A DNA stretch of 64,000 nucleotides, taken from a virus. The notes below the pieces were generated by a model that worked only from the letters and a program-made list of their open reading frames with translations, was not told the origin of the DNA and searched no databases. Shown piece by piece: positions 16,989 to 57,370 of the stretch. The stretch lies in UHGV virus genome UHGV-0306641; one strand, given 5' to 3'. Numbering within the stretch: position 1 is the first letter of the stretch; every line of letters begins with the position of its first letter. Made by a program: the position numbers and the translations under genes.

Positions 16989-17542
16989 TCTGCTTCTTTT
17001 CCATAGTTATATTGATTTAGAAAACCTCAAGACACGGGGCTTCCTGTCACTGAGTAACATTTGGGCAAAGATGGTCACGGGTGAGCAAAAAAAAGACTTG
17101 AGTGCCGAGATCGGCGCTAGTAAACTGGACGCTAGTCTAGTAACCAGACAACAAAAGGCCTCCGCTCAGTAAAGAACGTTTTCATCTTTGTGGGCTGGGA
17201 AAAGCGGATCGGGTTAATTCATATTTGCCTCCTTTAACGTTTTCTTTTTGTTTTGGCTTGGTTGTTGGCTTATCACATTGAATTTCAGGGGTTTAACCCC
17301 CGGCAAGAACCACCTGGCAGGGTGGTTTTTTGCTTTCAGCGGGTAATATCACCCACAGATTCCCTAAAAGCACGATCTTTTTAGCCGCTACGATCCTGAT
17401 CGTCGGGTACTGGATACTATTCTGATCTCTTGTTTTTGACAATGCTGTGTTTATTTACACCTTAGAATTAAAGTTATTAATGTATTGCGGCAATGGCATA
17501 AAAAACCGCCAGTTAAGGCGGTTCGAGGGGGTTACTTCGAAG

Positions 17543-18571
17543 TTATTTATTCGGACGTAACCAGAGCACATCCTCATCACCGGCGGTAGTGGTTTGTTTC
17601 GCCGGATCGCGCTGGCGGGTAGGACGATCACCGATTGGTAGGCTGGAAGACATATTTCCTGCAGCTGACTCCAGCATCGCAGATAGCACCTGAATATCTT
17701 CTTCAGATTCCATACGAAGCAGCGCCTGGCGTTGCTCTTTGCTGATAAAAACAGGTAGGCTGTTTAATGTTTCCCGCATAATACGGCGGCGGGTTTTCGC
17801 CAGCTCACCGGCGCTTTCCAGCATGGCGTTTTGCTCACTAACCCGCGCCTGCATTTCTGCCAGTTGGCCCTGCAGCATCCACATCTGGCTTTCAAGATGG
17901 CCTGCATGCTGCACTGCTTCAAACATGGCCTGATCTTCTCGTAAGGCTTCAAAGTGATGACAAAGGTCTGTTGCCGCGTTCGCACTGAAACCTGACTCCA
18001 TCAACCCTGCAATCATTACCTCTGAACGTGTTCCGGCAGATTCCAGCATCAATGATGTTCTATCCAGGCTGATATAATTTGGTGTGGTCACATAGTCAAA
18101 ACCATAAAATCCAGTGACAACCGAACGCGCTGGTTTATCGTCGCCACCAGTAACCCAACTCCAGCCTCCTGCTCTCGACGACTCCATTCCCGTCACAATT
18201 TGTCCCGGATCTGTATCGAGAATTTCCTGTGTGTGCGTAACCACGCCATTATCATCAATGGATACTGAAAGGGTGCGGTTTGACGGGACATTTGTCAGCG
18301 TTACAGGTTTACCATCCACCATAACTACGGATACTTCGGGGAGAGTTAGATCTCCTGTTTTGGCGTAATGCATGGCACGACGTCCATGACCATAATAGCC
18401 GTACATTTGACCGAGTGAGATACATTCCTGAACTTGGGGGTCATTAAACGTATCATTGACTGATTTCAGAATATATTTGCGCATATTTTGTGGCGTGTAG
18501 CGACGAATGGTGTCCACCACAGAAAAGCGATCAGTAACTGTTTTGAGTGTTTTATAGGTACGTGGTTTCAA
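17543..18571 (-). CDS. Putative prohead protease/scaffold (Pro-like by position)
   Basis: 342 aa with a C-terminal coiled coil typical of scaffold domains. Translationally adjacent to the putative portal gene. Confidence 0.25.
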   Translation of the reverse strand: MKPRTYKTLKTVTDRFSVVDTIRRYTPQNMRKYILKSVNDTFNDPQVQECISLGQMYGYYGHGRRAMHYAKTGDLTLPEVSVVMVDGKPVTLTNVPSNRTLSVSIDDNGVVTHTQEILDTDPGQIVTGMESSRAGGWSWVTGGDDKPARSVVTGFYGFDYVTTPNYISLDRTSLMLESAGTRSEVMIAGLMESGFSANAATDLCHHFEALREDQAMFEAVQHAGHLESQMWMLQGQLAEMQARVSEQNAMLESAGELAKTRRRIMRETLNSLPVFISKEQRQALLRMESEEDIQVLSAMLESAAGNMSSSLPIGDRPTRQRDPAKQTTTAGDEDVLWLRPNK

Positions 18572-18584
18572 AGTGTGCTCCGTA

Positions 18585-20276
18585 TTACTGTTGTGTCATA
18601 ACGAATTTGGCGAAGTTAAGCAGCTGTTCCCGGCTCCATGTCTCCGGGTTACTGTCATCACCTCTACCTGGGGCGGATTCGTACATCATGTCGTCGTGTT
18701 CTCCTGCGTCTTTGGTCGCATTGAACTCTTTGATCATGGACTGCAGCATCTGCTCATCCATCTTGAGTTGGTCGCAAAACAGGTAACGCATAAACGTTTC
18801 ACTACCCGCCAATTTGGGGCTTTGCTGGATCTGGTCGAGAATCTGCGTGATAACAGCGATGAAGTTGGCGCGTGAATCTTGATCTCTTGCTTCTTCCTGC
18901 ATCAATGCCGTGTTCATTGAGTTGAACTGGACGGAGTAGGGGCGCTGGTTAGACAGGTAGGCTTTACCGTGTTTGTATGCCAGATGAATATCAGCGAGCC
19001 GGTAAATTACATCGGTTGCAGCCTGGCGGAGCCATTGAGCACGGATCGCGGCTTGAATAGCTGTTTGCGCCCAACCTCCTTCACCTAATCCCCCGGACAT
19101 TTGGTCTGCCCAGCCGAGCATGGTCGAATCTATGCCCAGGCTTGAGCACAGCTGGCGAAGATGAAACATGACGTCTTCAATGCCGGTGATATCAGCTGGA
19201 ATGTACTGGGTATCAATAGTGATGTTGTTCTTGCCATCCCCCATAACAGGTATCAGATGGTTAAGCACCGTCGGCATGGTATTCGCCTGCAGAGAACGGC
19301 GTGACATAGCTTCGCTGTTACGCTTCAGGGATTGGCTGACCGTGCGCGTGTAGTTCGCAGCGTTTACCGGATCGAGAGTACCGGTCGTCAGTGCGATCAG
19401 CCGGTCAATTTTTGCCGCGTTGTAACGCGTGGCCTTCAGTGCATTCAGTGCGCCGCAAAGGTTCATAAACGCTTCATACGAGTTTTCCAGAAAGCTGGTC
19501 CCGTAGTTCTGCGTTTCGGTGATAGGGTGCTGGCTTTGTTCAGTTAATAGGGAATATCCACGCGTACCGGTTGTGACCGGAATAATTTTCCCTGATGGCG
19601 TCCAAAACGGATTTTTCATTGCCACGATCTCCCACGGGTCAGCCAGCATGCGCTGCATTGTTTCCGGTGAAAGAAGGTAATCCCCTGAGAATCCCGCGAG
19701 AGTCCCGCCTTTGTTAAATTCCTGAATGAAGTACGGAAGGGTGTAGTAAGACGATTCGATATTTACGATCCCGCGACCTGGCTCACCGTAAGGGCGCATA
19801 TATCCGACGCCAAAAATCGCCATGAGTAACCCCCACGACGGCAGGCCGGTATCAATCATTTCCCCCAGGTCATTCATTAGCTCACTGCAGCGCGCCACTG
19901 TTTCTTTATCCCCAGGGTCTTTAGCAACGATGGAGAACGCCATGCCCGTCCGTTTACTGGGAGATAAGGCTTGCGCGAGGTGGATATTTAACGCCTGGGA
20001 AACCGTGGCGCTTTTTGCCATTTCCTCCAGCACTGTATACCGCGACAACCTTTCCAGAGGCAGCTCAAGGTTGATACCTATCTGATCCGCCTGTGTTGTC
20101 AGTTCTCCAGGTGCGTCTTGCCGGTTGCCGGTCAGAAATGACAGCCCCGACCGTGAAACCACATTGTGACCACTGCTGATGGGGAGTTGTGCCAGTGGCG
20201 CAGTTGGCGCGGCACCGGTGAACAATTTTTTCAGGGCTGCAAGTGGCCCGGAGCTTGTCGTCTTTCTGTTAGCCAT
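18585..20276 (-). CDS. Putative portal protein (Prt-like by position)
   Basis: 563 aa, divergent from the darB-like gene. Size and context fit a portal; no diagnostic motif visible. Confidence 0.3.
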   Translation of the reverse strand: MANRKTTSSGPLAALKKLFTGAAPTAPLAQLPISSGHNVVSRSGLSFLTGNRQDAPGELTTQADQIGINLELPLERLSRYTVLEEMAKSATVSQALNIHLAQALSPSKRTGMAFSIVAKDPGDKETVARCSELMNDLGEMIDTGLPSWGLLMAIFGVGYMRPYGEPGRGIVNIESSYYTLPYFIQEFNKGGTLAGFSGDYLLSPETMQRMLADPWEIVAMKNPFWTPSGKIIPVTTGTRGYSLLTEQSQHPITETQNYGTSFLENSYEAFMNLCGALNALKATRYNAAKIDRLIALTTGTLDPVNAANYTRTVSQSLKRNSEAMSRRSLQANTMPTVLNHLIPVMGDGKNNITIDTQYIPADITGIEDVMFHLRQLCSSLGIDSTMLGWADQMSGGLGEGGWAQTAIQAAIRAQWLRQAATDVIYRLADIHLAYKHGKAYLSNQRPYSVQFNSMNTALMQEEARDQDSRANFIAVITQILDQIQQSPKLAGSETFMRYLFCDQLKMDEQMLQSMIKEFNATKDAGEHDDMMYESAPGRGDDSNPETWSREQLLNFAKFVMTQQ

Positions 20277-20364
20277 GTTTTGACCAGTACCTTTGTTAAA
20301 TACAGACCGCTTAGATTTACGTGGATTTTATTGGGTCTATGTTTTACGGACATAAGGTTAAAAA

Positions 20365-27963: not shown

Positions 27964-28357
27964 AGTTTTCTAACAGAAAAATACCTTGCTTTAAATATAT
28001 TAAAGCCTTAGATTTTAATGGAGCAAAAGAAAGGCCCGGCTATGCCGGGCCTCACATTCACCTGTAGGTTTTCGCCGTCAAACTTAGGCCTACAGAGAAC
28101 AACAGGACTATATCATGAAAACATACGCGCAACGCGATTTTGTAAACCATCCTCAGCTTTCTGCGAAAAAAAACGATGTTTCCTCTCTGGAAAAGACCCT
28201 CATCGTATGGGGATCTCTGCTTCTTTCAACCTTCGGCGCGGCTTGGATTCTGAGTCTTATCTACCAATTCGCGATCCGTTGAACAACCTCACCTAAGCCC
28301 ACACAAAAACCGAATAATATCATCGGGTTTTGTATTCTATTCGGCGTTTACATAGCT

Positions 28358-29745: not shown

Positions 29746-31056
29746 TTGAATATAATGTCTAATGCCGCAGAACAACTCACCACTCCTACCCGCATCACCG
29801 ATGAGGTACTTCACCTGTCCTTTGTCGGCGTCTATAACCAGCTGAATCTGACATTACGCCGTATCAGCGGCGACGACCTCGACCGGCGCGCGTTGGAAAC
29901 CAGCATCAGCATGATCGAGCAGTTGCAGAGTGACGTTAACACGCGTCTGGATGATGAAACCAACGACTGTAACGCCCTTATTGAACAGCTTGAGGCAACG
30001 AAAAACCAGCTACTGGGGATGAACCTGTACAAAGTAGAGGTACAGGAAGAGGCGCTGGCTAAAGAAGACGAGCTGGAGGGGTTACGTCATGACGCCAAAA
30101 TGAAGGCGCTTGAGCTGGAAAACGCAATTATTAATTTAAAGAGCCAGATTGAGTCATCAGCACAGGAATTAACAACGATGCAGCTGGCCTACAATTCATT
30201 GAAAGCGTCCTTTGATACCTATAAGCGCTTACATCCAGAATCCATTCTCCGTGAGCGTGACGATCTGACAAAGCAAGTCTCCAGGTTGCGAGCAGAGCGC
30301 AAAGAAACAAATAAGAGACTTCAAACCATGCAGAGTAAGCTGAATATTGCCGACAAGGAAGTTGCTGCAGCCCGTTCTAGCCTGATCACCAAGCGTCAGG
30401 ATATGGACCGGCTTCATGCTTTGCATGAGAACCTGAAAAAGCGGGTGGATTTTCACGACGGTCGCGAACAAGTGAAGCTGCATACAGTTGTTACTGAGCA
30501 AGGGACTGAGCTTAACCTGTATATCTACAACTTCCACTTTGGCCTTTTGGCGCGCAATAGCTACATAAAGGGGCATGTTATTGAACTGGCTGATTTTCAT
30601 TTCCAGATCCGTACAGCCATGATGGTTGCGATGGACGTGGTGCCTGGTGTGTGGGGAAACCCTATCTACGAACGTCTGAGCGTATTTAAAAATGCTTGGG
30701 ATTCTGCGATAGACGAAGAATTACATCAGCGGATCATGGTCCGGTTAGAAATGGACTTCCCGAAAATCCACAAGCGCGCACTGGATGCCATCGCAGCTGG
30801 CATTGACGAACTGACATTACCGGCAAAGGTGCTCTCAATCCTGAAAGGTGCTGGATTTAAGAACGTGCAGGCCATAGCGTCCGTACTACCGTTTGAGCTG
30901 GTGGATATTAAGGGGATTGGAGAACAGACAGCGACGGAAATCACTAACGCGATAAATAGCTGGGCTATTCGCTGGTCGCGCGAGAATTGCGACATTGAGG
31001 CATACAAATCGAATGTGATCAGCAGCGCTAAACCAGCAAAAAGTAAGAGAAAATAA
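29746..31056 (+). CDS. Coiled-coil protein with a C-terminal helix-hairpin-helix DNA-binding motif
   Basis: 436 aa. Heptad repeats at residues 50-230. 'LPFELVDIKGIGEQTATEI' HhH motif near the C-terminus. Confidence 0.4.
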   Translation: MNIMSNAAEQLTTPTRITDEVLHLSFVGVYNQLNLTLRRISGDDLDRRALETSISMIEQLQSDVNTRLDDETNDCNALIEQLEATKNQLLGMNLYKVEVQEEALAKEDELEGLRHDAKMKALELENAIINLKSQIESSAQELTTMQLAYNSLKASFDTYKRLHPESILRERDDLTKQVSRLRAERKETNKRLQTMQSKLNIADKEVAAARSSLITKRQDMDRLHALHENLKKRVDFHDGREQVKLHTVVTEQGTELNLYIYNFHFGLLARNSYIKGHVIELADFHFQIRTAMMVAMDVVPGVWGNPIYERLSVFKNAWDSAIDEELHQRIMVRLEMDFPKIHKRALDAIAAGIDELTLPAKVLSILKGAGFKNVQAIASVLPFELVDIKGIGEQTATEITNAINSWAIRWSRENCDIEAYKSNVISSAKPAKSKRK

Positions 31057-31149
31057 ATTAAAACCTTAGAATTACATTGATAAAGATTGGAGCAGTACGT
31101 AAAGTACGAGCGCGACATTACGACATTTAACTAATTCCTTTTGCATGCA

Positions 31150-31186: not shown

Positions 31187-31289
31187 TTTCTCCAAAACGT
31201 ATCAGGCGCGCTCAAAATTTGAGGTGACGTGATTACCTATACTTATATTTTCCTTAGAATTATGGGTAATGTTAAGCGGAGGAAATGGA

Positions 31290-31700
31290 ATGTCTGAACG
31301 TATAACCAGTGTCGAAGTTGCTGCAGTTATGCTGAAGTGCGGTCGTTACATGACGATTTCTGAAATCATGGCGGCACTCACCGAAGCCTATCCCGATCTT
31401 GAGAACGGGCATACATCAGTCACGAACATCGTGCGCACCTTCATGAAATCACCGTCTGCCAGCTGCTTCTCTTTCCCCGGCGCGTATCCTCGCATGTATC
31501 TGCTTACTTCGGTTTCAGGCTATCTATTCAAGATCAGAGGTAACAGGCATGTATGCTACGACGATTTGCCGTTTCATAGCGGGAGTAAAAAGGATCAGGA
31601 AATAGAGAATAAAAAAAGCCAGGAGGTTTCCCGGCTGGCCTTTAATTTATTTAACAGCATTTGTCGTGAGCGGATCGCATCAGGTATTACTATCGTCTGA
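31290..31700 (+). CDS. Hypothetical protein
   Basis: ATG at 31290, 6 nt after GGAGGA; 136 aa. Confidence 0.35.
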   Translation: MSERITSVEVAAVMLKCGRYMTISEIMAALTEAYPDLENGHTSVTNIVRTFMKSPSASCFSFPGAYPRMYLLTSVSGYLFKIRGNRHVCYDDLPFHSGSKKDQEIENKKSQEVSRLAFNLFNSICRERIASGITIV

Positions 31701-33346: not shown

Positions 33347-33386
33347 TCATATGGGCAATAAATGTCCTTATTAAAAGGACATAAAA

Positions 33387-33456
33387 TGATCAGTAAGCAG
33401 GGAGAAACCTACATGATCAAATGAGTGATCAAAAAAAGTGATCATTTGCGTGATCA
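33387..33456. repeat. Cluster of five TGATCA (Dam-site) hexamers at the pacA 5' end; pac-like site, possibly also parC-like
   Basis: TGATCA at 33387, 33414, 33426, 33439 and 33451 with ~12-13 bp spacing; includes TGATCACTCTAA. The P1 pac site is built from TGATCA/G hexamers regulated by Dam methylation. Confidence 0.45.
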
Positions 33457-37664: not shown

Positions 37665-37698
37665 ATAACTATAGATAATGGGGGTTATATAAAGTTAC
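37665..37698. other. lox-like recombination site (13-bp inverted arms, 8-bp spacer)
   Basis: ATAACTATAGATA-ATGGGGGT-TATATAAAGTTAC, against loxP ATAACTTCGTATA-ATGTATGC-TATACGAAGTTAT. Outer ATAACT/AAGTTA and the spacer ATG are conserved. Lies ~180 bp upstream of the cre homolog. Confidence 0.5.
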
Positions 37699-37874
37699 GT
37701 GCTATGATCAGCTCAACGGGTTATCTTGGTGATCATTTTAGAGGCCTGTGAAAGATTGGGACCATTGGCGTTGCTGGTGGCCTTATTTTTTACGTAGCAC
37801 GTCGTTTCTTAGAAAGTATGTATTTTGAATGAGGACGTTTTACACGGTTCTCGCGTTATCAAGGAGGTCATAAC

Positions 37875-38900
37875 TTGAACTATCCGAATATTATCAACAT
37901 GAATTCGAGTTTTCCCGAGCTTACGGGGATCACTCCAGAGGAAGTTGCACAGAATCTACGCAAATTCATGGCGGATAAAGAGGCATATTCTGAAAATACG
38001 TTCAAAAAACTAACATCGGTTGTCCGGGCGTGGGCTGTGTGGTGCCAGAAAAATCAGATCGCACCGCTGCCGATTATGCCCGATTGCGCCAGAGCTTATT
38101 TTCTGGAACTACATGAAGCCGGTGTTGCATCCACCAGCATCACCAATCATTTTGCGATGCTTAACATGTTGGCCCGAATTTGTGGGCTTCCTGATCTGAA
38201 AAACTGTACAGAAGTGCAGCTGGCGATGAAGAAAATTCGCCGCCAGTCCGTTCTTGGCGGAGAAAAGACCGGGCAGGCCGTCCCGTTCCGGCTCGCCGAC
38301 CTGCAGTTAGCCAGCCATATTTTGTCCCAGTCCGACCGGCTTGCCGATTTGCGCAACCTCGCTTTTCTGTACGTAGCCTATAACTCCCTTCTTCGAATAC
38401 AGGAGATCGCCCGAATCCGGGTAAAAGACTTATCCGTTAACGATGAGCGGATAATCATGGATATTTCTCACACGAAAACAGTCGTGACCGCCGCAGGCGT
38501 CATCAAACATCTGAGTGTTCCAGCCAGTAATATGTTGAAAAAATGGCTAAATACTTCAGAGCTGATCAGCCATCCCGACGCGGTTGTGTTTTGTCGTGTA
38601 TTTAAAAATGATCGGGTACAGATATCCGAAACACCGATGACGACACCTTCACTGGAAAAAATATTCCAAGATACCTGGCGGCTGCTGGGCAGACCATCAC
38701 AAACCACCAACAAAGGAAGGTATGAAATGTGGTCTGGACATAGCGCCCGAGTCGGAGCTGCACAAGATATGGCTGAGCGCGGAGTGAGTATGGCGCAGAT
38801 AATGCACGAAGGAACATGGTCAAAACCGGAGACAGTAATGCGCTATTTACGACGCCTGAAGAACGAAAACAGCGCCATGAGTGACATAATGGAAAGGTAG
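37875..38900 (+). CDS. cre: Cre-family tyrosine recombinase
   Basis: 341 aa, TTG start after AAGGAGGT. Long colinear matches to P1 Cre: 'IRNLAFLGIAYNTLLRIAEIARIRVKD' vs 'LRNLAFLYVAYNSLLRIQEIARIRVKD'; 'WSGHSARVGAARDMA' vs 'WSGHSARVGAAQDMA'; catalytic R..H-R-W and a Tyr in 'VMRYL'. Confidence 0.85.
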   Translation: MNYPNIINMNSSFPELTGITPEEVAQNLRKFMADKEAYSENTFKKLTSVVRAWAVWCQKNQIAPLPIMPDCARAYFLELHEAGVASTSITNHFAMLNMLARICGLPDLKNCTEVQLAMKKIRRQSVLGGEKTGQAVPFRLADLQLASHILSQSDRLADLRNLAFLYVAYNSLLRIQEIARIRVKDLSVNDERIIMDISHTKTVVTAAGVIKHLSVPASNMLKKWLNTSELISHPDAVVFCRVFKNDRVQISETPMTTPSLEKIFQDTWRLLGRPSQTTNKGRYEMWSGHSARVGAAQDMAERGVSMAQIMHEGTWSKPETVMRYLRRLKNENSAMSDIMER

Positions 38901-38981
38901 ATACGCATCATTCTAAGGCTTTAATTTGTTGTAACGTGACTATTATTAGGACAAAATCGGACACGCGCCAAAGGAGGTGTT

Positions 38982-39302
38982 ATGTCGGATCTTGTCCTGC
39001 TTCACAGGCACTTTGTCATTGACCATTGCAAGCTTAGTTTTACTGCAGGCATCAAACATGGTCGTGCCGTGGTAGTTTTTGGCATAGCCACTCAATCCGA
39101 AGTAACCCCCCTCCTGACGCTTGAAAAAGAGTACCCGGACCGTAACGCCGCTTGTCAGTACGTACAGCGAGTGACAGAAACGGCAGCGCGCAAGTTGCTG
39201 GTTTACTACCAGAACGAGCACCAACCATTAGTTGACCGCATCAATAACGTGTTTTCCGGGCCAATCCGACTGGAATATTCCAGCCGCCACAAACCAGCGT
39301 AA
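38982..39302 (+). CDS. Hypothetical protein
   Basis: 106 aa with a GGAGGT RBS upstream; an ATTCTAAGG motif lies 60 bp upstream. Confidence 0.4.
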   Translation: MSDLVLLHRHFVIDHCKLSFTAGIKHGRAVVVFGIATQSEVTPLLTLEKEYPDRNAACQYVQRVTETAARKLLVYYQNEHQPLVDRINNVFSGPIRLEYSSRHKPA

Positions 39303-39305
39303 GAG

Positions 39306-39764
39306 ATGTGTATGTCCGTATCGTCAAACGTTGTGCGCCTGTTCGTCGCCGTCGCAAGCGCCCATGACATAAATGATCCAGTCGGCAACTTCAGCAATGG
39401 GTCTTATGTGGATTCATACAGTGGATATTACTTCGGTCCTGACATTTTCCAGCACCCCAAGACATTAGCAACCTTGGTTAAGAACGGGGTGATCGAGTTT
39501 TGCCGCGACCAGGAGCATGGCGAGGTGATCCGGTTCGACGACCGGCGTGACGTTCTTGACGAGTTCCAGCGCGGGATATTAGACGCCGAGGCCGGTAATC
39601 CTGATGACGCGGAGGACTCCACCAGCCCTTACGCCTACCTTGCCGGTAGAAAGTTCTTCAATCAGCGCCAGCGCTACGGAGGAATGGCGTACAGAGAGGA
39701 CCAGGGACGCGTCTGTCATGGAATGGTGTGCGCTGACACTGGGGAACGATGGGAACAAGGGTGA
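39306..39764 (+). CDS. Hypothetical protein
   Basis: 152-aa ORF. Confidence 0.35.
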   Translation: MCMSVSSNVVRLFVAVASAHDINDPVGNFSNGSYVDSYSGYYFGPDIFQHPKTLATLVKNGVIEFCRDQEHGEVIRFDDRRDVLDEFQRGILDAEAGNPDDAEDSTSPYAYLAGRKFFNQRQRYGGMAYREDQGRVCHGMVCADTGERWEQG

Positions 39765-39846
39765 TAGACAGAAAAAAGGGGGCCATTACAGCCCCCCTTC
39801 TTCATTGCGATTTAGCCTTTGAAAAAGCCACTGACAGGATAGCAAA

Positions 39847-40329
39847 TTGAACAACGCCTTCCCACAATTACAGATCTTTTCTTCTCCATACCCGGACGTT
39901 GCCGCCGCCATTATTGCGATCTATTGCGGTGAAAAGCGCGGCCTGACGCTTTCCCGACGGGATTTTACCGCCCTTCTGCCTGGCGTCAGCACCGATCACA
40001 TTCGCAAAACGCTACGCGACTTTCTTGAAAACAAGACGCTGGCCCGGAGCGGATGCCGGTACCGGCTCGCAGTTACTCCCGCCAGAATTATTGGCATGAA
40101 GCCGTACCGCCTTTATCGCGTGGATTTACAGATTCTACGGCTCATACAGTCAAGAGGTGTCATCACGGCAAGCGACATGCTGCGGGTACACGGCGTGTCA
40201 CGAACAATATTTCTGAGATCCGCCGCAAGGCTGAAAAAGCTGGGACTGATTGAGTCCTATCAAGACAAACCACTCCCGGCAGCATGCCGGTACTACAAAT
40301 TTAAAACACAGGAAAATATCCATGAGTAA
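39847..40329 (+). CDS. Putative winged-helix DNA-binding protein
   Basis: 160 aa. 'ITASDMLRVHGVSRTIFLRSAARLKKLGLIE' looks like a wHTH. Confidence 0.3.
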   Translation: MNNAFPQLQIFSSPYPDVAAAIIAIYCGEKRGLTLSRRDFTALLPGVSTDHIRKTLRDFLENKTLARSGCRYRLAVTPARIIGMKPYRLYRVDLQILRLIQSRGVITASDMLRVHGVSRTIFLRSAARLKKLGLIESYQDKPLPAACRYYKFKTQENIHE

Positions 40330-40792
40330 ATTACAGATTTGCAAGATTGATGAAGGCGCAACGGTGCCAATGCTGGCTGGTGGCTCTACTTTCCCTATTG
40401 AGGCTACAGATATTCGCTTTGAGGCCGTCATCCGCAATGCCGGTAATCACGCAAAGGCGTACTGGCTGAAAACAGGGCTGGCGTTTAACGTCCCTGAAGG
40501 CCACGTTCTGAAGGTTTACTCTGCACCTGATATAGCAAGGGCTAACCATGCCAGACTTGCCGAATGCGTAGCGCTGGTGGAGCCTGGCGACCATTCAGAA
40601 TTGACTCTGCGAATGGTGATCGACGATGGCGGTAAATCATTTGAGCCTAAGCCGGGGATGATTGTCGCCCGTGCCATGCTGGAAAAAATTGTCTGCCTGG
40701 AGCTGGAAGAAGTAGACAGCTTTGATGCGCCAAAATCAGTAAAAAACACCAGCCAGCCCAAAGGGGATGTAACCGCAAAGGCTGGTAAATAA
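40322..40792 (+). CDS. dUTPase-fold protein (possibly non-catalytic)
   Basis: ATG at 40322 (ATGAGTAA overlap). All-beta pattern with 'ATVPMLAGGSTF' and 'LRMVIDDGG' reminiscent of dUTPase motifs I and III. Confidence 0.3.
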   Translation: MSKLQICKIDEGATVPMLAGGSTFPIEATDIRFEAVIRNAGNHAKAYWLKTGLAFNVPEGHVLKVYSAPDIARANHARLAECVALVEPGDHSELTLRMVIDDGGKSFEPKPGMIVARAMLEKIVCLELEEVDSFDAPKSVKNTSQPKGDVTAKAGK

Positions 40793-40793
40793 C

Positions 40794-41468
40794 ATGGAAT
40801 ACATCATCGGCAAGGGGGTGAGTGTCTTCACCCTCGATGGCAACGAAATCGACCAGAGAAGTATCGACCTAGCCTTGTTTACCCTTACCGGCTTCACGCC
40901 CATTAATACCAATGGTGTTACGGTATGGGAGCGCGGTAGCGAGCGCTACTGGACGCCACCAGACACGCAGGTAGAGGACGCGGATAGCATATCTGATCAT
41001 CTGAATGCGAAGGTAATGGTACCGTCACAGGATGCCGGTTTCGCGCAACGGCTATTGCGCCTGGTGCCGATGGTGGTCAATCCGATCGTGTTTATTGAAG
41101 GTCGTTTGGTTGGTGGCTGGCAGGTCGAGAATAACCCGGAGCCAAGCACCGGCGACATTATGACAAACGGTCATCAATCCCATTCTTACCAGGACACAGT
41201 TTTACCCATGGCTATTGCAATGGTGTTTCTGCAGGTACAGGGGTTGGGCCAACAAGCCTGGGTCTATATCGGGGAGCACGATGGCGCGCAGCCGGAGCTG
41301 CATTACGTGGTCCCTCACCCGCGCACCCTGGCATTGTTGGAAAGCACACCTTCATTCATCCGCGCGCCGGAACTTGATAAGTTCGCGGTAGTCGGTCCGT
41401 CGCCAGACTTTATACAAGAAGCGTTTACGACCGCTAAGCTAAAGCAGGCCGCTCGCGTTCCTGAATAA
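40794..41468 (+). CDS. Hypothetical protein
   Basis: 224 aa; TAACATGG coupling to the previous gene. Confidence 0.35.
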   Translation: MEYIIGKGVSVFTLDGNEIDQRSIDLALFTLTGFTPINTNGVTVWERGSERYWTPPDTQVEDADSISDHLNAKVMVPSQDAGFAQRLLRLVPMVVNPIVFIEGRLVGGWQVENNPEPSTGDIMTNGHQSHSYQDTVLPMAIAMVFLQVQGLGQQAWVYIGEHDGAQPELHYVVPHPRTLALLESTPSFIRAPELDKFAVVGPSPDFIQEAFTTAKLKQAARVPE

Positions 41469-41500
41469 TCTCCGACCGGCCCCCGTCAGGGGGCTGTTAT

Positions 41501-41932
41501 TCACCCTTCGGCATCTTCCGCTAACAATTCAAGCATTGACGGTTTAGGGTTATCAGCCACGATCTGAGTTGGTGAGCTGCAGGCGTCTACTTCCGCCTCT
41601 TTTCGAGGCTTGCTGTCAGCATTCAACCACTGATGGATTAGCGCTGGCATCTGGCCCTTCGTTAAGTCGGGTTTAAACCATAAGCTGTAAGCCGTCCGGG
41701 AGCCACCAGCAGCTGCATATTCTGCGAAATTGACAATGTAGCCCTCTACCCCCTTCTTAAACTCAACGTCATCCATTTTATTACCATTTAACGCAACCAT
41801 GCCTGAGTCCTGATAAATGATAACTTTGCGTGTGCCGCAATCGAAATTAAGCGCGCGTAAGCTGGTGGGTTGTCCTACTGTCGGGACAAAAATTAGTAAT
41901 GCAGAAATTAAAAGCCATTTTATATTTTTCAT
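41501..41932 (-). CDS. Secreted/periplasmic protein with an N-terminal signal peptide
   Basis: N-terminus MKNIKWLLISALLIFVPTVGQ; 143 aa; followed by a 440-bp AT-rich noncoding stretch. Confidence 0.4.
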   Translation of the reverse strand: MKNIKWLLISALLIFVPTVGQPTSLRALNFDCGTRKVIIYQDSGMVALNGNKMDDVEFKKGVEGYIVNFAEYAAAGGSRTAYSLWFKPDLTKGQMPALIHQWLNADSKPRKEAEVDACSSPTQIVADNPKPSMLELLAEDAEG

Positions 41933-42374
41933 ATTTCCCTACCAGATCAAATAGCAATAAATATGCTTGCCCTCATATCTGGCGAGATAGGTTATAGGAC
42001 TTTCCGCAATAACAGTAATTTTTTACGCAATAATCTTTAACGCAACAGCACCTGCCGAGCGCCATGTGACTATCTAATCCGCTCTACGACTTGTCGCACC
42101 CTGATTTGACATTGAATTCTAAGGATTTACTTTATGTTTACTTGCTAATAACTGAGGGCAGTAAGCATGTTAGGGTAAAAACTCATTTGCTCACCTGCCC
42201 CCATGGAAAATAAAATAGCAGCACGGTAACAATTACAAACGAGAGGAATATATGAAAATTAAAATCAAGCTTATTATCTTTACTTTCAAAATAAACTTAC
42301 ATATTGAGAGATTATGCAATTAAATAAAAATGGGGGATTCGACCAGATGTGTCCTCCCCTATAGTTTCCGTATC

Positions 42375-42872
42375 CTACTTGTAGTAGTAGGCTATATTCA
42401 TTGCCTTATAGAGTTCCTTAAATCTTTCTTCTCTATATAACGAAAGCCATTCCGTCCAATTACTTATTACGATCTTCCAGAGTGGTGAATCAAACAATGC
42501 AGATTGAGCCGGTAATTGCTCTCCTGGTTGGAGGTATACCGCCTCAATCATTCTTACACAGCGTCCAAAATCATCAGGGTCAAGAGGGTAGGCAAATTCC
42601 GCCTCACAGCCTCCTGTCAATATGGATGCCATATATAGACTGCTAGCCCCAACATCATCACTGGCAAGCCATGCCTCCAGCCCTATTCCCTCCTTGCCTA
42701 CTCCCTTCAGGACTACAGCTGGCTTACGAGCGTACTCCGCCACAATTAAGTTCGCCGCTCCTATTATCGTGCTGTAACGGTTATCTGCAGTGAGGCCTGG
42801 AATCTGGCGGCACAGCTCCGTAGAAATGGCATTTATCAAAGCAATCTGATCTATCTGGTAGGTTTCGCTCAT
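42375..42872 (-). CDS. Hypothetical protein
   Basis: Probable start at the Met of 'MSETYQ' (42872) after AGGAAG; 165 aa. Confidence 0.35.
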   Translation of the reverse strand: MSETYQIDQIALINAISTELCRQIPGLTADNRYSTIIGAANLIVAEYARKPAVVLKGVGKEGIGLEAWLASDDVGASSLYMASILTGGCEAEFAYPLDPDDFGRCVRMIEAVYLQPGEQLPAQSALFDSPLWKIVISNWTEWLSLYREERFKELYKAMNIAYYYK

Positions 42873-42894
42873 TGCTGTCTTCCTTGTAATGGAT

Positions 42895-43335
42895 TCAGGC
42901 GACCTGGTGGCAGGTAACGCCCATAGAACGGATAGCGGCGCACACGTCCGGGTTATCATCGAACGCGCACAAAATGTTTTCGGTGCCGATGTTCCTGATC
43001 CAGTCACGCTTAATTTCAGCTGGTGGGCGGTGCTCTTTCTCCCCACGCATAATCAGGCGGTCATAAGGGATCTGGTATCGTGATAACCAAGCAGCTGTTT
43101 CCGCATAGGCCACCTCTCCCCGGCTTGTAAGAATGAAAATCCTGTAATGTCTGCTCAGTGCCACCAGCAACGCGATATTCGCCATGATGGGAGTATCTTT
43201 CTCACACGCCAGGCTAAAACGGTCCCAGTTCGGCGCGTGGCTCATCATGTCCAGGCGAGGAATGAGATCCTCACGGTGGCGGTGGTCAGCCAACGTATTG
43301 TCCAGGTCAAACACCACGATATCTGCAGTGGTCAC
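42895..43335 (-). CDS. HAD-superfamily phosphatase (5'-nucleotidase / polynucleotide 3'-phosphatase-like)
   Basis: HAD motif I 'VVFDLDNTLAD' at the N-terminus; downstream 'FILTSRG' (motif II) and 'AFDDNPD' (motif IV). Confidence 0.5.
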   Translation of the reverse strand: MTTADIVVFDLDNTLADHRHREDLIPRLDMMSHAPNWDRFSLACEKDTPIMANIALLVALSRHYRIFILTSRGEVAYAETAAWLSRYQIPYDRLIMRGEKEHRPPAEIKRDWIRNIGTENILCAFDDNPDVCAAIRSMGVTCHQVA

Positions 43336-43473
43336 AAAAACACTCCTGTCATTCGTAAGTGAACAATAATAATCAATATGATTCTAAGGTATTTGTATTT
43401 ATCGAATGGATAAATTACAGCATTCCGTTTTATACTCTGAGAATACCATTAAATCTAAGGGTTTTTAAAAGGG

Positions 43474-44148
43474 TTGTTCATGCTTAGTACAGAGGATCGG
43501 GATGCACTCTACGAAAAACAGCGAATCGCAGCGCAACGGCAGCGCGAACGTCAGAAGACCAAGCTGGCTGACCCAGCTTATCGGCAACATCAACAGGAAA
43601 AACGGCAGGCGGCAGCACAACGATCCGCCGAAAAACGATTAGCCCGTATCCGTTCACCGGAGTATCAGGAAGCGCAGCGTGAAAAACAGCGCATTAAGCG
43701 ACAGGAAACAGCACAGAAACCACGTACAGCACTTACCGTTACCAAAACCCGTAAAACCTCAACGCGAGGACTGAAAGGCAGAACCCCGACCGCAGACGAA
43801 CGGCGCGTAATGAATGCGTTAGCCAAACTCCCCTGCACCGCTTGCTGGCTGCATAAACACCACCAGCCAATTGTCAGCCTGCATCATGTAAATGGGCGCA
43901 CTGCAGCTGGCGCGCATATGGATGTTTTACCGTTGTGCCGGTGGCATCACCAGGACGCGGCCCCAAAAGCAGATCGCGAGCAATACCCGTGGCTGGTGCC
44001 GGTTCATGCCAGCGGCAATGTTGGCGGAAAGGCCGAATTTACGCGCCTGAACGCCTCCGAAGAAGATTTGCTACTCATGGCCTACGAACAGGCTGGAATA
44101 ATCAGAGAGGTACATGGTGTGCCACTCGTAAAAAGGAACGAACAATAA
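43474..44148 (+). CDS. HNH endonuclease with a basic disordered N-terminus (P1 Ref-like architecture)
   Basis: 224 aa. N-terminal ~100 aa Arg/Lys/Gln-rich coiled region; C-terminal 'CTACWLHKHH...HHVNG...CRWHH' Cys/His HNH-type metal site. TAATG coupling to the next gene. Confidence 0.5.
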   Translation: MFMLSTEDRDALYEKQRIAAQRQRERQKTKLADPAYRQHQQEKRQAAAQRSAEKRLARIRSPEYQEAQREKQRIKRQETAQKPRTALTVTKTRKTSTRGLKGRTPTADERRVMNALAKLPCTACWLHKHHQPIVSLHHVNGRTAAGAHMDVLPLCRWHHQDAAPKADREQYPWLVPVHASGNVGGKAEFTRLNASEEDLLLMAYEQAGIIREVHGVPLVKRNEQ

Positions 44149-44936
44149 TGAGAATAAAACATTGCGCCACATCTGATCCACGTTGGGTGGAGCTGGTAGA
44201 GAAATATCAGAGTAACTGGAATCAAGCGATGATAGACATCTTTGGTATGACACCTACAGATCAGCAAAAACTGGTGATAGAAAGAGCAAGCAAACCGGGT
44301 TCACATACAACGGTAACAACCCCTAGTGGAATTGGTTGTAAACACCTCATAAGTGCTATTGCCATTCTCCTCGTAATTCTTTATCCCAATGGGCGAGTTA
44401 TCATCCCATCAATGGACGTTGCCGCCACCAAAAGCCAAATAATGAAGTACATGAAGCAACATTGGTATAAAGCGATTCAAAATCATCCATGGCTTGATAT
44501 TTACTTTGACCTAACGAGCAACGGAATCCATGAACGAAGCACCGACCGCCTTTGGTTTAGCAGTTTTAAAAGCGTCAGAAAGTATCCAGAAAGCATAGCT
44601 GGTGAATATGCCAAACATCTGTTTTTCATTTGCCCTAATGCCAATAGCTTATCCGAAAAGATAATGGGAATTATCAATGCCTCATTGGTTGAAAGGGACA
44701 ATGGAATACTGCTCACAGGAATACCATCAGAACACCGTACTTACTTTTATCATAGCCACCATAGGCTATCAGGGGATCTATATTCAGCGATTCAATTGAG
44801 TGCCGAAGATTCTCCACTCGTAACGCCGGAATACATAGAGATGAAAAGACGTGAACTTGGAGGACGCGACACAAACGCTTATCGGATGCAGGTCCTGGGC
44901 CTTTTCCCAAACGAATCATCCACCAGCGATATATAG
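44148..44936 (+). CDS. Truncated paralog of the terminase large subunit ATPase domain, with degenerate Walker A/B
   Basis: Colinear with the PacB N-terminus: 'CATSDPRWVELVEKYQSNW' vs 'CVTSDPRWREMAIRYRHDW'; 'IFGMTPTDQQ' vs 'LFGMQPSWQQ'; 'YFYHSHHRL' vs 'YFYDSHHSL'; 'QVLGLFP' vs 'KVLGQFP'. Walker A is 'SGIGCKH' instead of 'GHGTGKS'; Walker B 'LLIILDEASG' is replaced by 'LFFICPNANS'. No nuclease domain (262 aa). Confidence 0.6.
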   Translation: MRIKHCATSDPRWVELVEKYQSNWNQAMIDIFGMTPTDQQKLVIERASKPGSHTTVTTPSGIGCKHLISAIAILLVILYPNGRVIIPSMDVAATKSQIMKYMKQHWYKAIQNHPWLDIYFDLTSNGIHERSTDRLWFSSFKSVRKYPESIAGEYAKHLFFICPNANSLSEKIMGIINASLVERDNGILLTGIPSEHRTYFYHSHHRLSGDLYSAIQLSAEDSPLVTPEYIEMKRRELGGRDTNAYRMQVLGLFPNESSTSDI

Positions 44937-44944
44937 GTGTAACA

Positions 44945-45175
44945 GTGACAAGAACAGCAACGGAACGGGCCTTAAATCCCCACGGACACGTATATATACT
45001 GGATGGATTAACCAAACTCCATATTTGTAAGATTTGCGGAACCTGTGAGCGCCGGAACGGACAATATTGGTGGGCTGGTAAGTGGAGTAAGACAGAGCCG
45101 CCGTGCGGCCTCAACACAGATGGACAACGGGACTGGCATAACAATGCAAACCCTGACAACGAAGACGAACCATGA
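44945..45175 (+). CDS. Small Cys-rich (zinc-ribbon-like) protein
   Basis: 76 aa with 'CKICGTCERR...C' in the sequence. Confidence 0.2.
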   Translation: MTRTATERALNPHGHVYILDGLTKLHICKICGTCERRNGQYWWAGKWSKTEPPCGLNTDGQRDWHNNANPDNEDEP

Positions 45176-45369
45176 CCGGCTGCAGGACGATAAATAATTC
45201 CTTGACGCAAAAAAAACACAAAGTACAAACCGCATAAAATCCTCGCAGCTTTTGTGTTCCCTTGAGGGTACTTTTGACAATTTAACTTCCTGCTTTAGCG
45301 CGGTTGGGAACATCAATAGCCAGTAAGGGGCCGCAATCGCGGCCTTTTTGCTTTCTGGAGGATAGAAAA

Positions 45370-46029
45370 TTGAGTCAAAAAATAGCTGTTTTCAGTCTCT
45401 CAACATCAACCCCGCTCTATGTCACCGCCATCTATAACGATGACAACAACCTGATAATGAGCACCCCGAAATCACTTCCCAACTCATTAAAACAACAACG
45501 AGTAAAGGTGATCCCCGCCGTCGAGAAGTTACTTAAAGCTGACTTTAAGGTGCTGGTGGATGAAACCAGTGGGACCATTGCGAGCGAAAGTGGCGCTCAC
45601 CATGTTTCACTGAAGACGCGACATACAGACTCGCGCGCTGCAGTTTTGGTCGGCATCGAGCGTTACAACGAATTGCGCCTCCAGAAAGCCATTTCTCTTC
45701 CAGAGAAAAACCCCGGCGCATATGAGATCCCGTCTTCTATCGTGGACATTGATTACAACGCCGCCGGTGACGAGGTATATCACATCAACTGGCAGGATAT
45801 TCGACCCGAGCACCTGCTTACGATCATGTGCTGTTTTGCCACGGTATACCATCCTGTTACTTCTGCTGCGTATATCAAAGCCATGACCGGCTGCAGCGAA
45901 GAACGCGAGCAGCACCCGCTATTACGCGTTTTCGGGAATCTCATTAAGCATCAGGAAGTGACCAGTGCAAACGCCGTACCGCCATCGCTAACCGGGAAGC
46001 GAATCAGTGATAACGAGGTCATTCTATGA
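45370..46029 (+). CDS. Hypothetical protein (first of a 3-gene overlapping operon)
   Basis: Probable TTG start at 45370 after GGAGGA (track ORF starts 45304). Confidence 0.35.
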   Translation: MSQKIAVFSLSTSTPLYVTAIYNDDNNLIMSTPKSLPNSLKQQRVKVIPAVEKLLKADFKVLVDETSGTIASESGAHHVSLKTRHTDSRAAVLVGIERYNELRLQKAISLPEKNPGAYEIPSSIVDIDYNAAGDEVYHINWQDIRPEHLLTIMCCFATVYHPVTSAAYIKAMTGCSEEREQHPLLRVFGNLIKHQEVTSANAVPPSLTGKRISDNEVIL

Positions 46030-47586: not shown

Positions 47587-48006
47587 TTACGCGTCCATGA
47601 ATGAGCTTGCCGGAATGTTAAAGCGCCGCGCAAGTGCTTTCATGTGATCCAGTGTTAATGAGCGAGTCCCGTTAAGGATACGGCTCACAAGCGATTTCTT
47701 ACCAATCTCTTCCTCAAAATCACTCTGAGTCAGTTTGTGCTGGTCCATCAGGACACGCAGCAGGGCCACGCCGCTTGGTAACGCTGCAATACGCTCGTTG
47801 AACTCAGCCAACTCTTCCGCCTCATCTTCATACTGGGAAATTTTCGCAACCAGCATGTCCACCAGCGGATGATCTGGCTCGTGTTCAATCAGGTATTCAA
47901 CCAGCGTCAGCGCGTCTTCATAGTCCTTACGAGAGGCATTGCCCCCCAGGAGGGGGACAATGCTAACCAGGCTGTTTGCCGCCTGGAGAGCATCGGTATA
48001 CATCAT
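47587..48006 (-). CDS. higA: HigA-like antitoxin (HTH, Xre-type)
   Basis: 139 aa, downstream of and overlapping the toxin gene. C-terminal HTH 'LTQSDFEEEIGKKSLVSRILNGTRSLTLDHMKALARRFNI'. Confidence 0.5.
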   Translation of the reverse strand: MMYTDALQAANSLVSIVPLLGGNASRKDYEDALTLVEYLIEHEPDHPLVDMLVAKISQYEDEAEELAEFNERIAALPSGVALLRVLMDQHKLTQSDFEEEIGKKSLVSRILNGTRSLTLDHMKALARRFNIPASSFMDA

Positions 48007-48347
48007 TCTTTCGTTCTCCGGTAAAAATCTGTCAGCTTGTCGTATTCGGCATGTGTGGTTATGTGCTTTATGAAGATTTTCCCACGTTCAAAATCAGCAA
48101 AAAACATCACTCTCAAATTCCCGCCGCCTACATCGATCACCCACCACTTCTCCCGATATTTCATTCTGTCCAGCGAGGCAAATCGCTTCTTCATGTCGTC
48201 CGGTGAAGTGTAATTATCTTTCTTCAAAGTCCGGTATACGCTTTCAAGTGCCGCTGCCTGATTGGGAAATTGCCTGGTGGCTGTATCGAAGGGAATCCTC
48301 GATACAACGTGCATCCTTATCTCCTTTCGTTTCCATCTTGGAAACAT
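48003..48347 (-). CDS. higB: HigB-like toxin (RelE/ParE superfamily)
   Basis: 114 aa, toxin-first gene order. Basic, with 'WWVIDVGGGNLRVMF...IKHITTHAEYD' resembling HigB. Confidence 0.5.
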   Translation of the reverse strand: MFPRWKRKEIRMHVVSRIPFDTATRQFPNQAAALESVYRTLKKDNYTSPDDMKKRFASLDRMKYREKWWVIDVGGGNLRVMFFADFERGKIFIKHITTHAEYDKLTDFYRRTKE

Positions 48348-49986: not shown

Positions 49987-49988
49987 TT

Positions 49989-50969: not shown

Positions 50970-51618
50970 GAAAAGAGCTGTCATTGTGGGAACCAAACAC
51001 CCAGGCGGATTAATGCGCGCGCAAGTAAGGGTGTTGCCGGATTGGGTTGGCGTACCGGATGAATCGTTACCGTGGGCGGAATACATGATGCCCATAGGCA
51101 ATGCTTTTACACCAACTGTTACCGGCGATCTGGTATGGGTAGAGTTTCCATATACCGATGTACGAGGAAAGCCTGATACGCGACGACCATTGATTGTAGG
51201 CGCGGCCTCCGATTCGCCTGGCGGGGTTCCTAACGTTGCGCCTGAAGCGTCCGGGCAAGGTGCCGCGTGGGAGCCGCCGCCGGTTGATGGTGCGCCAGCG
51301 CGCCCACAATTCACACCAAGTGAAGATTTTGTTGTGCATCGCAATAACGTTTTTGAGGTTCGTACAGCTGGTGGCGGGTATGAGATAGCCAATACCGCAG
51401 CTGGTACGCGCATAGGCATGAATGAGGCCGGTAAAGCCTACATTATCGGGCCTGGTGATATGGTCTTTGATGCTGGTGGAGACTTCATTGTAAAAGCTGG
51501 TGGAAAGATCAGCATGGAATCTAAGGATAAAACAGAAATTAAGTCAGGCGCAGCAATGGACCTTACTGCATCTGGCAAGCTGAGCGGCAAAGCTTCTCAA
51601 GTTGATTTTTCAAAATAA
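50962..51618 (+). CDS. Baseplate spike, gpV/Mu gp45-like
   Basis: 218 aa. N-terminal OB-fold-like 'GTKHPGGLMRAQVRVLPDW...MPIGNAF...GDLVWVEFPYTD' resembles the gpV family ('V.V.lPG.....WLPv......G.gf.ffPevGdeVlV.F'). Confidence 0.45.
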   Translation: MSKKRAVIVGTKHPGGLMRAQVRVLPDWVGVPDESLPWAEYMMPIGNAFTPTVTGDLVWVEFPYTDVRGKPDTRRPLIVGAASDSPGGVPNVAPEASGQGAAWEPPPVDGAPARPQFTPSEDFVVHRNNVFEVRTAGGGYEIANTAAGTRIGMNEAGKAYIIGPGDMVFDAGGDFIVKAGGKISMESKDKTEIKSGAAMDLTASGKLSGKASQVDFSK

Positions 51619-51684
51619 ATAACATTAATTCTAAGGAACAATGTGATTTAATCTACCTGTCTTTATCAGGTAGGTAATCACAGG

Positions 51685-56061: not shown

Positions 56062-56132
56062 AAAAGCAAAAAGGCCGCGTTAGTAACGGCCTCTTTCACA
56101 CAACATGCACATACATTGGCAATGCTACGTAA

Positions 56133-56411: not shown

Positions 56412-56419
56412 GAGTACCT

Positions 56420-56500
56420 ACCGTATATTCACTATGTACATACAACGCAATTACATTAAGGTAAATACATTGTATTGTCCATTTGTATTTACATCGTATT
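56420..56500. repeat. Centromere/operator-like repeats (GTAAATACA / TGTATTTAC) between parF- and parG-like genes
   Basis: GGTAAATACATTGTATT and TTTGTATTTACATCGTATT, inverted copies of the same 9-mer. Confidence 0.45.
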
Positions 56501-56501
56501 A

Positions 56502-57164
56502 CTAGAGAATGCCAATTTCTTGAGCCACCAGCTCGATTTGTGCCTTTGCTTTTCCAAGGCTATTACCGCGCGCTACATCATGAACACCGGCCCCTTCATT
56601 ACATGCGCTTTCAAAAATATCGAGAGCCGCGAGGCGGTTTTTTAACGGTTGAATCCATACAGGATCTGAACGCAGGTACTTATCCAGCTCGATGGCATCT
56701 TTAACTTTGCTTGGCTTATTGGTTTCTATCCTGGTAAGAAGAACCCACGGGGATAATTTAGGGTTGGCGTTTTGAGCTTTACGCACTTTCTCGGTTACAG
56801 CTGTAAGCGTATTACGTTCAAATTTAGATGATGGCTTAACCAGAGTGATAAGGATATCCGCAACGGTTAACGCACTACGGAACTCCTTGCTATCGTGACC
56901 GGCACAGTCAACAAGGACGTATTCAAACATAGCCGTCAGCTTTACGATCTCTTTACTGATCTCGCCATACGCCTCATAAACAGGAACAACGGGTAAGCCA
57001 TTGCTTCTGCGGTCCTCTCCCCAGTTGACCATGTCCTGGTTTTTATCGGACTTCAGAATGCAGCACGTCTTTCCCTTGTTAACGAGCATTGACGCCGTAT
57101 TAGCTGCAGTAGTGGACTTCCCCACGCCGCCTTTATCCGACACATAAACAATCGACTTACCCAT
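56502..57164 (-). CDS. ParA-family partition ATPase, small type Ib (ParF-like)
   Basis: 220 aa. Deviant Walker A 'SDKGGVGKSTTA'. Confidence 0.65.
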   Translation of the reverse strand: MGKSIVYVSDKGGVGKSTTAANTASMLVNKGKTCCILKSDKNQDMVNWGEDRRSNGLPVVPVYEAYGEISKEIVKLTAMFEYVLVDCAGHDSKEFRSALTVADILITLVKPSSKFERNTLTAVTEKVRKAQNANPKLSPWVLLTRIETNKPSKVKDAIELDKYLRSDPVWIQPLKNRLAALDIFESACNEGAGVHDVARGNSLGKAKAQIELVAQEIGIL

Positions 57165-57180
57165 ATATCATCCCCATAGC

Positions 57181-57370
57181 GCACATAGTATTATCAATGT
57201 AATTACACTGTACATGCGTGTAATGTTTGGCATATCCGCATGAAGTGTAATGCGTAACCAGCTCATGTCAATACTTTGTATTTACATTACTGACACCACA
57301 ATGTAAATACATAGGCAATACACAACAGTAAATACACCAGACATACAACGCATTTACAACCAATCTAAGA
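57181..57370. repeat. Centromere-like repeat array upstream of parF-like (parC/parH analog)
   Basis: At least 6 copies of GTAAATACA/TGTATTTAC and TGTAATG units in both orientations within 190 bp. Confidence 0.5.

Follow-up and report, generated by a model that had tools for sequence, protein, structure and literature searches.

A dispersed 9-bp word in a Citrobacter P1/D6-like phage-plasmid is very probably an operator of the element's own C1-family immunity repressor

The C1 immunity repressor of phage P1 binds 22 dispersed operators with an asymmetric 17-bp consensus, ATTGCTCTAATAAATTT, and Lpa is among the genes under its control (PMC8546580). The Lpa-dependent late promoters of P1 have the form AAGTNACTT-N4-TANNNT, whereby a 9-bp box near -22 lies 4 bp upstream of a TANNNT -10 hexamer. 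Phage D6 encodes a C1-like repressor of 345 amino acids. Here we analyzed UHGV virus genome UHGV-0306641, a stretch of 64,000 nucleotides (hereafter, the window) that is a Citrobacter P1/D6-like phage-plasmid and that encodes a C1-like protein of similar length to the D6 repressor (344 amino acids) in a similar gene order. A 9-bp word, ATTCTAAGG, recurs between its genes, and an initial annotation had suggested that this word is either a C1-like repressor operator or an Lpa-type late-promoter element. Our comparisons indicate that ATTCTAAGG is very probably an operator whose ligand is the C1-family immunity repressor that the element itself encodes (36284-37318).

A megablast search with 20 kb of the window against phage records gave no match, and megablast identified Citrobacter plasmids of ~85 kb that are roughly 95% identical, such as NZ_CP114569. 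Fragments of these elements are also found in large Klebsiella and Raoultella plasmids. By BLASTP against the annotated P1 proteome, the open reading frames (ORFs) of the window resemble the P1 gene set at 21-68% amino-acid identity; the P1-like genes include tail fibre, dar, prt/pro, darB, pmgM/R/S, lpa and pacAB as well as c1, cre, ref, mat, tail genes, hrdC-dmt, upfC and repA. The presumed repressor and its presumed key target are encoded as follows.

36284-37318, minus strand: gene for a C1-like immunity repressor of 344 amino acids, the presumed ATTCTAAGG binder, located between pacB and lox-cre.
31269-31700, plus strand: homologue of lpa, the late-promoter activator gene (PF25716 BPP1_LPA, E 2e-24), the presumed key target of repression.

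In the window, pacB, c1, lox and cre follow one another as they do in P1. The 344-residue protein shares 24% identity with P1 C1 over 248 residues (BLASTP, E 3e-11) and matches NCBIfam NF041318 phage_rep_C1 with an E value of 3e-12, below the equivalog cut-off, while its database homologues carry PF27008 Phage_P7_repressor_C1. Its identity to the D6 prophage repressor is 31% by tblastn and 29% in a protein alignment, and the two proteins have in common a C-terminal extension of ~90 residues that P1 C1 does not have. A search for solved structures of this repressor family found none.

Seven exact copies of ATTCTAAGG are present in the window, each at the coordinates and on the strand originally reported. 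Dinucleotide-preserving shuffles gave a mean of 0.45 copies, in agreement with the earlier estimate of ~0.5, and 0 of 100 shuffles reached seven. When the longest non-overlapping ORFs are taken as genes, non-coding sequence amounts to 5,335 bases (8.3% of the window), and it holds all seven copies, which bears out their proposed intergenic placement. The enrichment survives correction for local composition, as a first-order Markov model of the non-coding sequence predicts 0.055 copies. One-mismatch copies as a class are not enriched in the window (16 seen, 13.2 expected), and near-copies were therefore counted by context alone. Of 13 TCTAAGG heptamers in all, ten are intergenic, and the three beyond the exact copies lie at 28006 (minus), 43452 (plus) and 37402 (minus). 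All three are intergenic one-mismatch copies that are kept in relatives, and they are part of the same set as the exact copies. The four near-copies named in the initial annotation all exist; those at 28006 and 43452 belong to the set, and the membership of 37624 (ATTCTAAGC) and 57362-57370 (AATCTAAGA) is doubtful. The 37402 variant, TTTCTAAGG, had been overlooked. The ten intergenic sites, followed by two further near-copies, are listed here with their P1 equivalents.

17460-17468, minus strand: exact copy just past a terminator-like hairpin after pro, ~470 bp upstream of a gene for a 305-residue protein (16071-16988).
28006-28014, minus strand: AATCTAAGG, upstream of a small ORF and the pmgM homologue and antisense to them; P1 equivalent O26, which is likewise antisense to pmgL and pmgM.
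31064-31072, minus strand: exact copy 8 nt past the pmgS stop codon, the distal member of a pair between pmgS and lpa; P1 equivalent Olpa.
31252-31260, minus strand: exact copy ~30 nt upstream of the likely lpa start (31290), the other member of the pair; P1 equivalent Olpa.
37402-37410, minus strand: variant TTTCTAAGG, oriented like c1 and 84 bp upstream of it; a candidate autoregulatory operator of c1; P1 equivalent Oc1.
38910-38918, plus strand: exact copy 10 nt past the cre stop codon, upstream of the post-cre operon (38982-41468).
42116-42124, plus strand: exact copy within a 442-bp gap, in the spacer of a good sigma-70-like promoter (TTGACA-N16-TACTTT).
43381-43389, plus strand: exact copy upstream of ref; P1 equivalent Oref.
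43452-43460, plus strand: AATCTAAGG, the second of the two ref copies, with ~20 nt between it and the ATG; P1 equivalent Oref.
51628-51636, plus strand: exact copy 48 nt upstream of hrdC (rdgC)-dmt; P1 equivalent Odmt.
37624-37632, plus strand: weak near-copy ATTCTAAGC between c1 and a lox-like repeat.
51518-51526, plus strand: AATCTAAGG within the 3' end of a gp5-like gene; the 51628 copy is 110 bp further downstream, and membership among the operators is uncertain.

The positions of these sites parallel those of the P1 operators. Our P1 reference was the annotated record with experimentally defined C1 operators and Lpa-dependent late promoters. The window sites occupy eight intergenic regions, and five of the eight correspond to P1 regions that contain a C1 operator (Oc1, Oref, Odmt, Olpa and O26). 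Thus, in both genomes a homologous repressor is encoded at the same position and many single, asymmetric operators are scattered about, with sites upstream of the c1, ref, hrdC-dmt, lpa and pmgL/M homologues. This is the P1-type immunity architecture, with a C1 gene by lox-cre, dispersed asymmetric operators and sites at c1, lpa, ref and dmt. The proposal that ref and dmt are targets is supported by the copies upstream of ref (43381 and 43452) and of hrdC-dmt (51628), and the more general proposal that the word marks a regulon holds as well. In the best-supported reading, this regulon would comprise lpa, ref, hrdC-dmt, pmgM, the post-cre operon and c1 itself. The systems differ in the number of operators, 22 in P1 and ~10 in the window, and in operator sequence outside TCTAA.

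The initial annotation had made conservation of the motif positions in related phage-plasmids a test of its proposal, and exact ATTCTAAGG is indeed found at orthologous sites in relatives whose C1 proteins are 95%, 79% and 59% identical to that of the window, while the flanks diverge. In the 95%-identical plasmid, the 9-mer is unchanged wherever the orthologous site is present and the adjoining bases differ; at the ref site, the upstream flank is unrelated to that of the window. In the more distant relatives L011 (C1 79% identical) and L010 (59%), ATTCTAAGG is exact both after cre and upstream of lpa; L011 has an additional exact copy upstream of ref. The TTTCTAAGG variant upstream of c1 also recurs in L010 (9918, plus strand) and L011 (9911, plus strand). 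In an alignment of the post-cre region, the block ATTCTAAGGC(T)TTWATTTGTTGTAACGT is kept in four relatives and the stretch from the cre stop codon to the motif diverges; similarly, upstream of lpa CCTTAGAAT, the complement of the motif, is invariant in four relatives with variable flanks.

Individual sites show the same behavior. The 17460 site is kept in CP114569 (L012, 9838, minus strand), the 28006 site in L003 (7017, minus strand) and the 31064 site in L003, L011 and L014-L017. The 43381 copy is kept in L003, L011 and L015-L016, where the upstream flanks are unrelated, the 43452 copy in L003 (22739, plus strand) and the 51628 copy in L003 with changed flanks. For 42116, an exact copy was not found at the expected position in L003, L015 or L016, and the weak 37624 near-copy was absent from one-mismatch scans of L010 and L011. 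The 51518 copy is kept in L003, which says little as it lies in coding sequence.

The word also changes with the repressor. An alignment of C1 proteins, searched against viral contigs, returned 80 loci in three groups: window-type C1 (4 loci, 92-99% identical), D6-type (26 loci, ~29%) and P1-type (50 loci, 25%). Motif counts were then taken over 93 loci. ATTCTAAGG is limited to loci of elements with window-type C1 and occurs in 0 of 26 D6-type and 0 of 50 P1-type loci. A second word, TTTTCTAACA, is present in D6 itself and in 26 of 26 D6-type loci, where one copy always lies ~40 nt upstream of c1, and a third, ATTGCTCTAAT, is limited to P1-type loci (48 of 50) and P1 itself. ATTGCTCTAAT occurs 11 times in P1, which lacks ATTCTAAGG; the window shows the reverse. 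The places of TTTTCTAACA in D6 are upstream of c1, directly after pmgS, between pmgR and pmgS and in an immI-like region, and a shorter match, TTTTCTAA, is found upstream of D6 lpa. The D6 word, whose sites are predicted from sequence, differs from ATTCTAAGG in its flanks. All three words contain TCTAA; thus, the core that had been noted as common to ATTCTAAGG and the P1 C1 consensus extends to D6. This pattern fits that expected if one repressor-operator pair diverged into three specificities with the operators staying in place, and the best-supported reading is that the element would represent a third specificity group beside P1/P7 and D6. Taken with the syntenic C1 homologue, the sites at the five P1 operator places and the exact 9-mers at orthologous sites in relatives, this co-occurrence with C1 clade favors the C1-like repressor reading of the initial annotation.

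Two further observations concern pmgS and pmgM. The pmgS gene is flanked by operator copies in the window lineage and in D6 alike, and the PmgS homologue (29746-31056) contains a C-terminal helix-hairpin-helix domain like that of the RNA polymerase alpha subunit C-terminal domain (PF03118, E 2.8e-6). In window-type elements, TTTTCTAACA occurs as a single stray copy beside the 28006 site; in the window this copy lies at ~27966-27975, ~30 bp from 28006 and upstream of pmgM. It is kept in three other window-type elements (loci L003, 6977-6986, and L014-L016) and may be a relic, a second specificity or a chance occurrence.

Alignment of 22 sites from three genomes showed an invariant TCTAAGG with (A/T)(T/A) before it and, after it, nTTT and ~8 bases that are T/A-rich but weaker; the sites are partly orthologous, and the flank statistics are thus not independent. 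The extended operator consensus would be about wATTCTAAGGnTTTwwTnT, with ATTCTAAGG as its strongly conserved half. ATTCTAAGG is not self-complementary, the flanking consensus is asymmetric and the ten intergenic sites are spread over 17.4-51.6 kb. The P1 operator has a similar shape, with a strong half and a degenerate, A/T-rich half.

Candidate promoters were scored with a sigma-70 heuristic, and the results serve as a guide only. At lpa and pmgM the motif lies over a candidate -10 hexamer, with TTACCT-N16-TAGAAT and TTGCTT-N17-TAGATT, respectively, on the complement. Specifically, the complement of the 31252 site, CCTTAGAAT, contains TAGAAT, the best candidate -10 hexamer for lpa, and that of the 28006 site holds the possible -10 hexamer TAGATT. 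At ref and hrdC, the motif is located around +1. These placements suggest a mechanism in which some ten scattered operators, several of which overlap or adjoin sigma-70-like candidate promoters of early and lytic-switch genes, would be occupied in the plasmid-prophage state, such that bound repressor would block RNA polymerase and keep the early and lytic genes off. At lpa and pmgM, the operator complement would itself be the candidate -10 hexamer, and with lpa off the late promoters would be silent. We infer from these comparisons that C1 binds the word, that binding is monomeric with a P1-like stoichiometry and that repression proceeds by promoter occlusion.

Several observations weigh against this assignment. 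The link between ATTCTAAGG and C1 rests on synteny and co-variation, and other clade-specific proteins likewise co-vary with the C1 clade; hence, co-variation does not point to C1 uniquely. The sites at 17460, 38910 and 42116 have no clear P1 counterpart, and simple occlusion is not obvious at the first two of these, where the motif precedes the best heuristic promoters by 35-60 bp. A scan of 37300-45400 found fewer sigma-70-like consensus matches than in shuffles and was uninformative. The likeness of ATTCTAAGG to the P1 operator is confined to the TCTAA core, and the P1 17-mer had no match in the window at up to three mismatches; the element would thus have a distinct immunity type, rather than P1 or P7 immunity. 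Finally, the P1 immunity genes Lxc, Coi and c4/ant were not recognized when the window ORFs were compared with the P1 proteome by BLASTP, a search that divergent small proteins could escape; an 89-residue ORF at the syntenic lxc position gave an E value of 0.38 against P1 Lxc.

For the genes downstream of 17460, 38910 and 42116, the PHROGs, Pfam and NCBIfam databases yielded only families of unknown function. The 305-residue protein encoded at 16071-16988 shows no similarity to D6 RepL. An Rfam scan of the whole window matched no known RNA family, and thus no c4-like RNA was found at 42116 or 17460. The ~470 bp between the 17460 operator and the next gene (16989-17459) contain no convincing ORF. 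They do include a strong promoter of the sigma-70 type (TTGTCA-N17-TAGTAT), a hairpin around 17310-17340 that has A and T runs on its sides, and a mini-ORF of two codons whose ribosome-binding site is strong. The region may be a leader or small RNA, and no Rfam family matches it.

The fallback reading of the initial annotation, in which ATTCTAAGG would serve Lpa-activated late promoters as their -22-type box, as happens in P1, deserves consideration given that an Lpa homologue is encoded in the window, that both the P1 late promoters and ATTCTAAGG are short, dispersed, intergenic words and that TANNNT follows the motif by three bases at 28006, 31064, 38910 and 42116. Unlike P1 late promoters, however, the ATTCTAAGG sites are at early-gene positions and their orientation is inconsistent: 28006, 31064 and 31252 are antisense to the downstream gene. 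Spacing and -10 quality also vary. No structural, morphogenesis or lysis operon in the window is preceded by ATTCTAAGG, nor does the word occur in 22.6 kb of structural genes, mostly outside the window, in the plasmid of a close relative (L009). The sites instead precede genes that are C1-controlled in P1, lpa itself included. The window shows no enrichment of the P1 late-promoter pattern (13 seen, 14 expected), and the late-promoter positions are filled by another motif, AADYACARA-N5-TANNNT, which we derived from the regions upstream of window genes whose P1 homologues have late promoters. It matches the window six times against 0.13 expected, a statistic that is inflated since the motif was derived from the scored sequences. 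In the sequence of the relative, it matches four times against 0.03 expected, and three of these matches are new and outside the window.

2982-3001, 15529-15548, 20298-20317, 45221-45240 and 57381-57400, all plus strand: matches to AADYACARA-N5-TANNNT preceding R/S tail-fibre genes, a TIGR02594 lysozyme-like gene, darB, mat and upfC (PAAR).
43381-43400, minus strand: match preceding a pap-like gene; its TAGAAT -10 hexamer is the complement of the 43381 operator.
1115, 5948 and 8079 in L009: matches upstream of a capsid gene, a baseplate gene and a block of tail genes.

Among these places are the counterparts of P1 LPs, LPlyz, LPmat, LP23 and LPsit, and AADYACARA-N5-TANNNT is probably the Lpa-dependent late promoter of this lineage. 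Its recurrence at late genes outside the window marks the late promoters as a motif separate from ATTCTAAGG, and as late-type genes carry this different motif we reject the Lpa reading of ATTCTAAGG, which is extremely improbable. At 43381-43400, the late match uses the operator complement as its -10, which suggests dual control by operator and late promoter at this site. Dual control is said to have been described for P1 mat, reportedly by Lehnherr et al. in 1992.

The overlap with -10 hexamers raises the alternative that ATTCTAAGG is a promoter element read by host RNA polymerase rather than a repressor site. The complement CCTTAGAAT carries the near-consensus TAGAAT, which would be a plausible -10 with a usable -35 at lpa and pmgM, and the 43381 complement is the -10 of a late-type promoter. 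But promoters at 38910, 51628 and 17460 would fire antisense into cre, gp5 and the terminator-like hairpin, respectively, the CCT extension would be kept without reason for a host -10, and there is no reason for such a hexamer to change in sequence with the C1 clade; we regard this alternative as very unlikely. The word could also be the operator of another DNA-binding protein encoded by the element that co-varies with the lineage, either an unrecognized early regulator or a C1 partner. Co-variation with C1 clade is co-variation with the whole lineage too, and downstream of the sites there are several small genes without known function. However, five positions match mapped P1 C1 operators, including those upstream of c1 and lpa, the TCTAA core common to the P1, D6 and window words fits divergence of a single repressor-operator pair, and no alternative candidate regulator was found. 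A role for a second protein thus appears distinctly unlikely, and C1 remains the favored ligand of ATTCTAAGG.

The sites also show a strand polarity around c1-lox. The sites at 17460, 28006, 31064, 31252 and 37402 are on the minus strand and those at 38910, 42116, 43381, 43452 and 51628 on the plus strand, such that all ten face away from c1-lox, antisense to genes on the lpa side and sense on the cre side. The naive chance of this perfect 5/5 split is ~0.008, in a post hoc test. In the half of D6 that was examined, the lpa-side sites likewise face away from c1, and the P1 operators are mixed. One speculative reading, which we consider unlikely, is that the 9-mer defines a third immunity specificity and that, in addition, the polarity reflects a directional function of an asymmetrically bound repressor, by oriented looping to the c1 region or as a one-way roadblock, rather than simple occlusion. 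If so, repressor and sigma-70 would compete for the same hexamer at lpa and pmgM.

Other explanations for the word were dismissed. A Shine-Dalgarno role does not fit, as in the window ~20 to ~470 nt separate AAGG from the next start codon downstream. The flanks, judged by eye, do not fit the integration host factor consensus WATCAANNNNTTR, and likeness among the sites spans only ~20 bp, which argues against a mobile-element repeat.

A literature search found no paper giving ATTCTAAGG as a phage operator. Most likely, this is an expected kind of control element whose recognition sequence was not found described in the literature searched. The analysis supplies an operator word and a likely repressed regulon for phage-plasmids of Citrobacter and related Enterobacteriaceae, for which a published operator was not found. 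P1-like elements would comprise at least three repressor-operator specificity groups around a TCTAA core, which predicts heteroimmunity between groups, and the three groups provide a natural series for the study of specificity change in a monomeric repressor with asymmetric sites. Together, the operator and late-promoter words permit sequence-based annotation of early and late transcription units.

Additional features were apparent in the window. Chi (GCTGGTGG) is present in 62 copies across the whole window against 1.8 expected (e.g., at 338, 3650, 10287 and 62929), and 21 of the 22 copies in 16142-37780 are on the plus strand; P1 is Chi-rich. Direct and inverted repeats of TCAACGCTGGCGGGT and TCAACGCTAGCGGGT at 59217-59275 and 60199-60300 flank a RepA-like gene (59276-60178) and look like the iterons of a plasmid origin and copy-control locus, comparable to P1 incC and incA. 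The gap between a divergent ParM-like gene (33346, minus strand) and pacA, at 33347-33437, contains several TGATCA/TGATCAT repeats, each of which includes a GATC Dam site, and could represent a centromere of the parC type or a region under Dam control. Upstream of pacA, P1 has the late promoter LPpac.

An ORF at 43935-44936 overlaps the 3' end of ref and is 40% identical over 258 amino acids to part of PacB, the large terminase subunit; it is thus a second, truncated terminase-like gene, distant from pacAB. Within the tail cluster, genes for a HigB-like toxin and a helix-turn-helix antitoxin (47587-48347; names from the annotation of a relative) are located on the opposite strand, between gp25-like and gp7-like genes.

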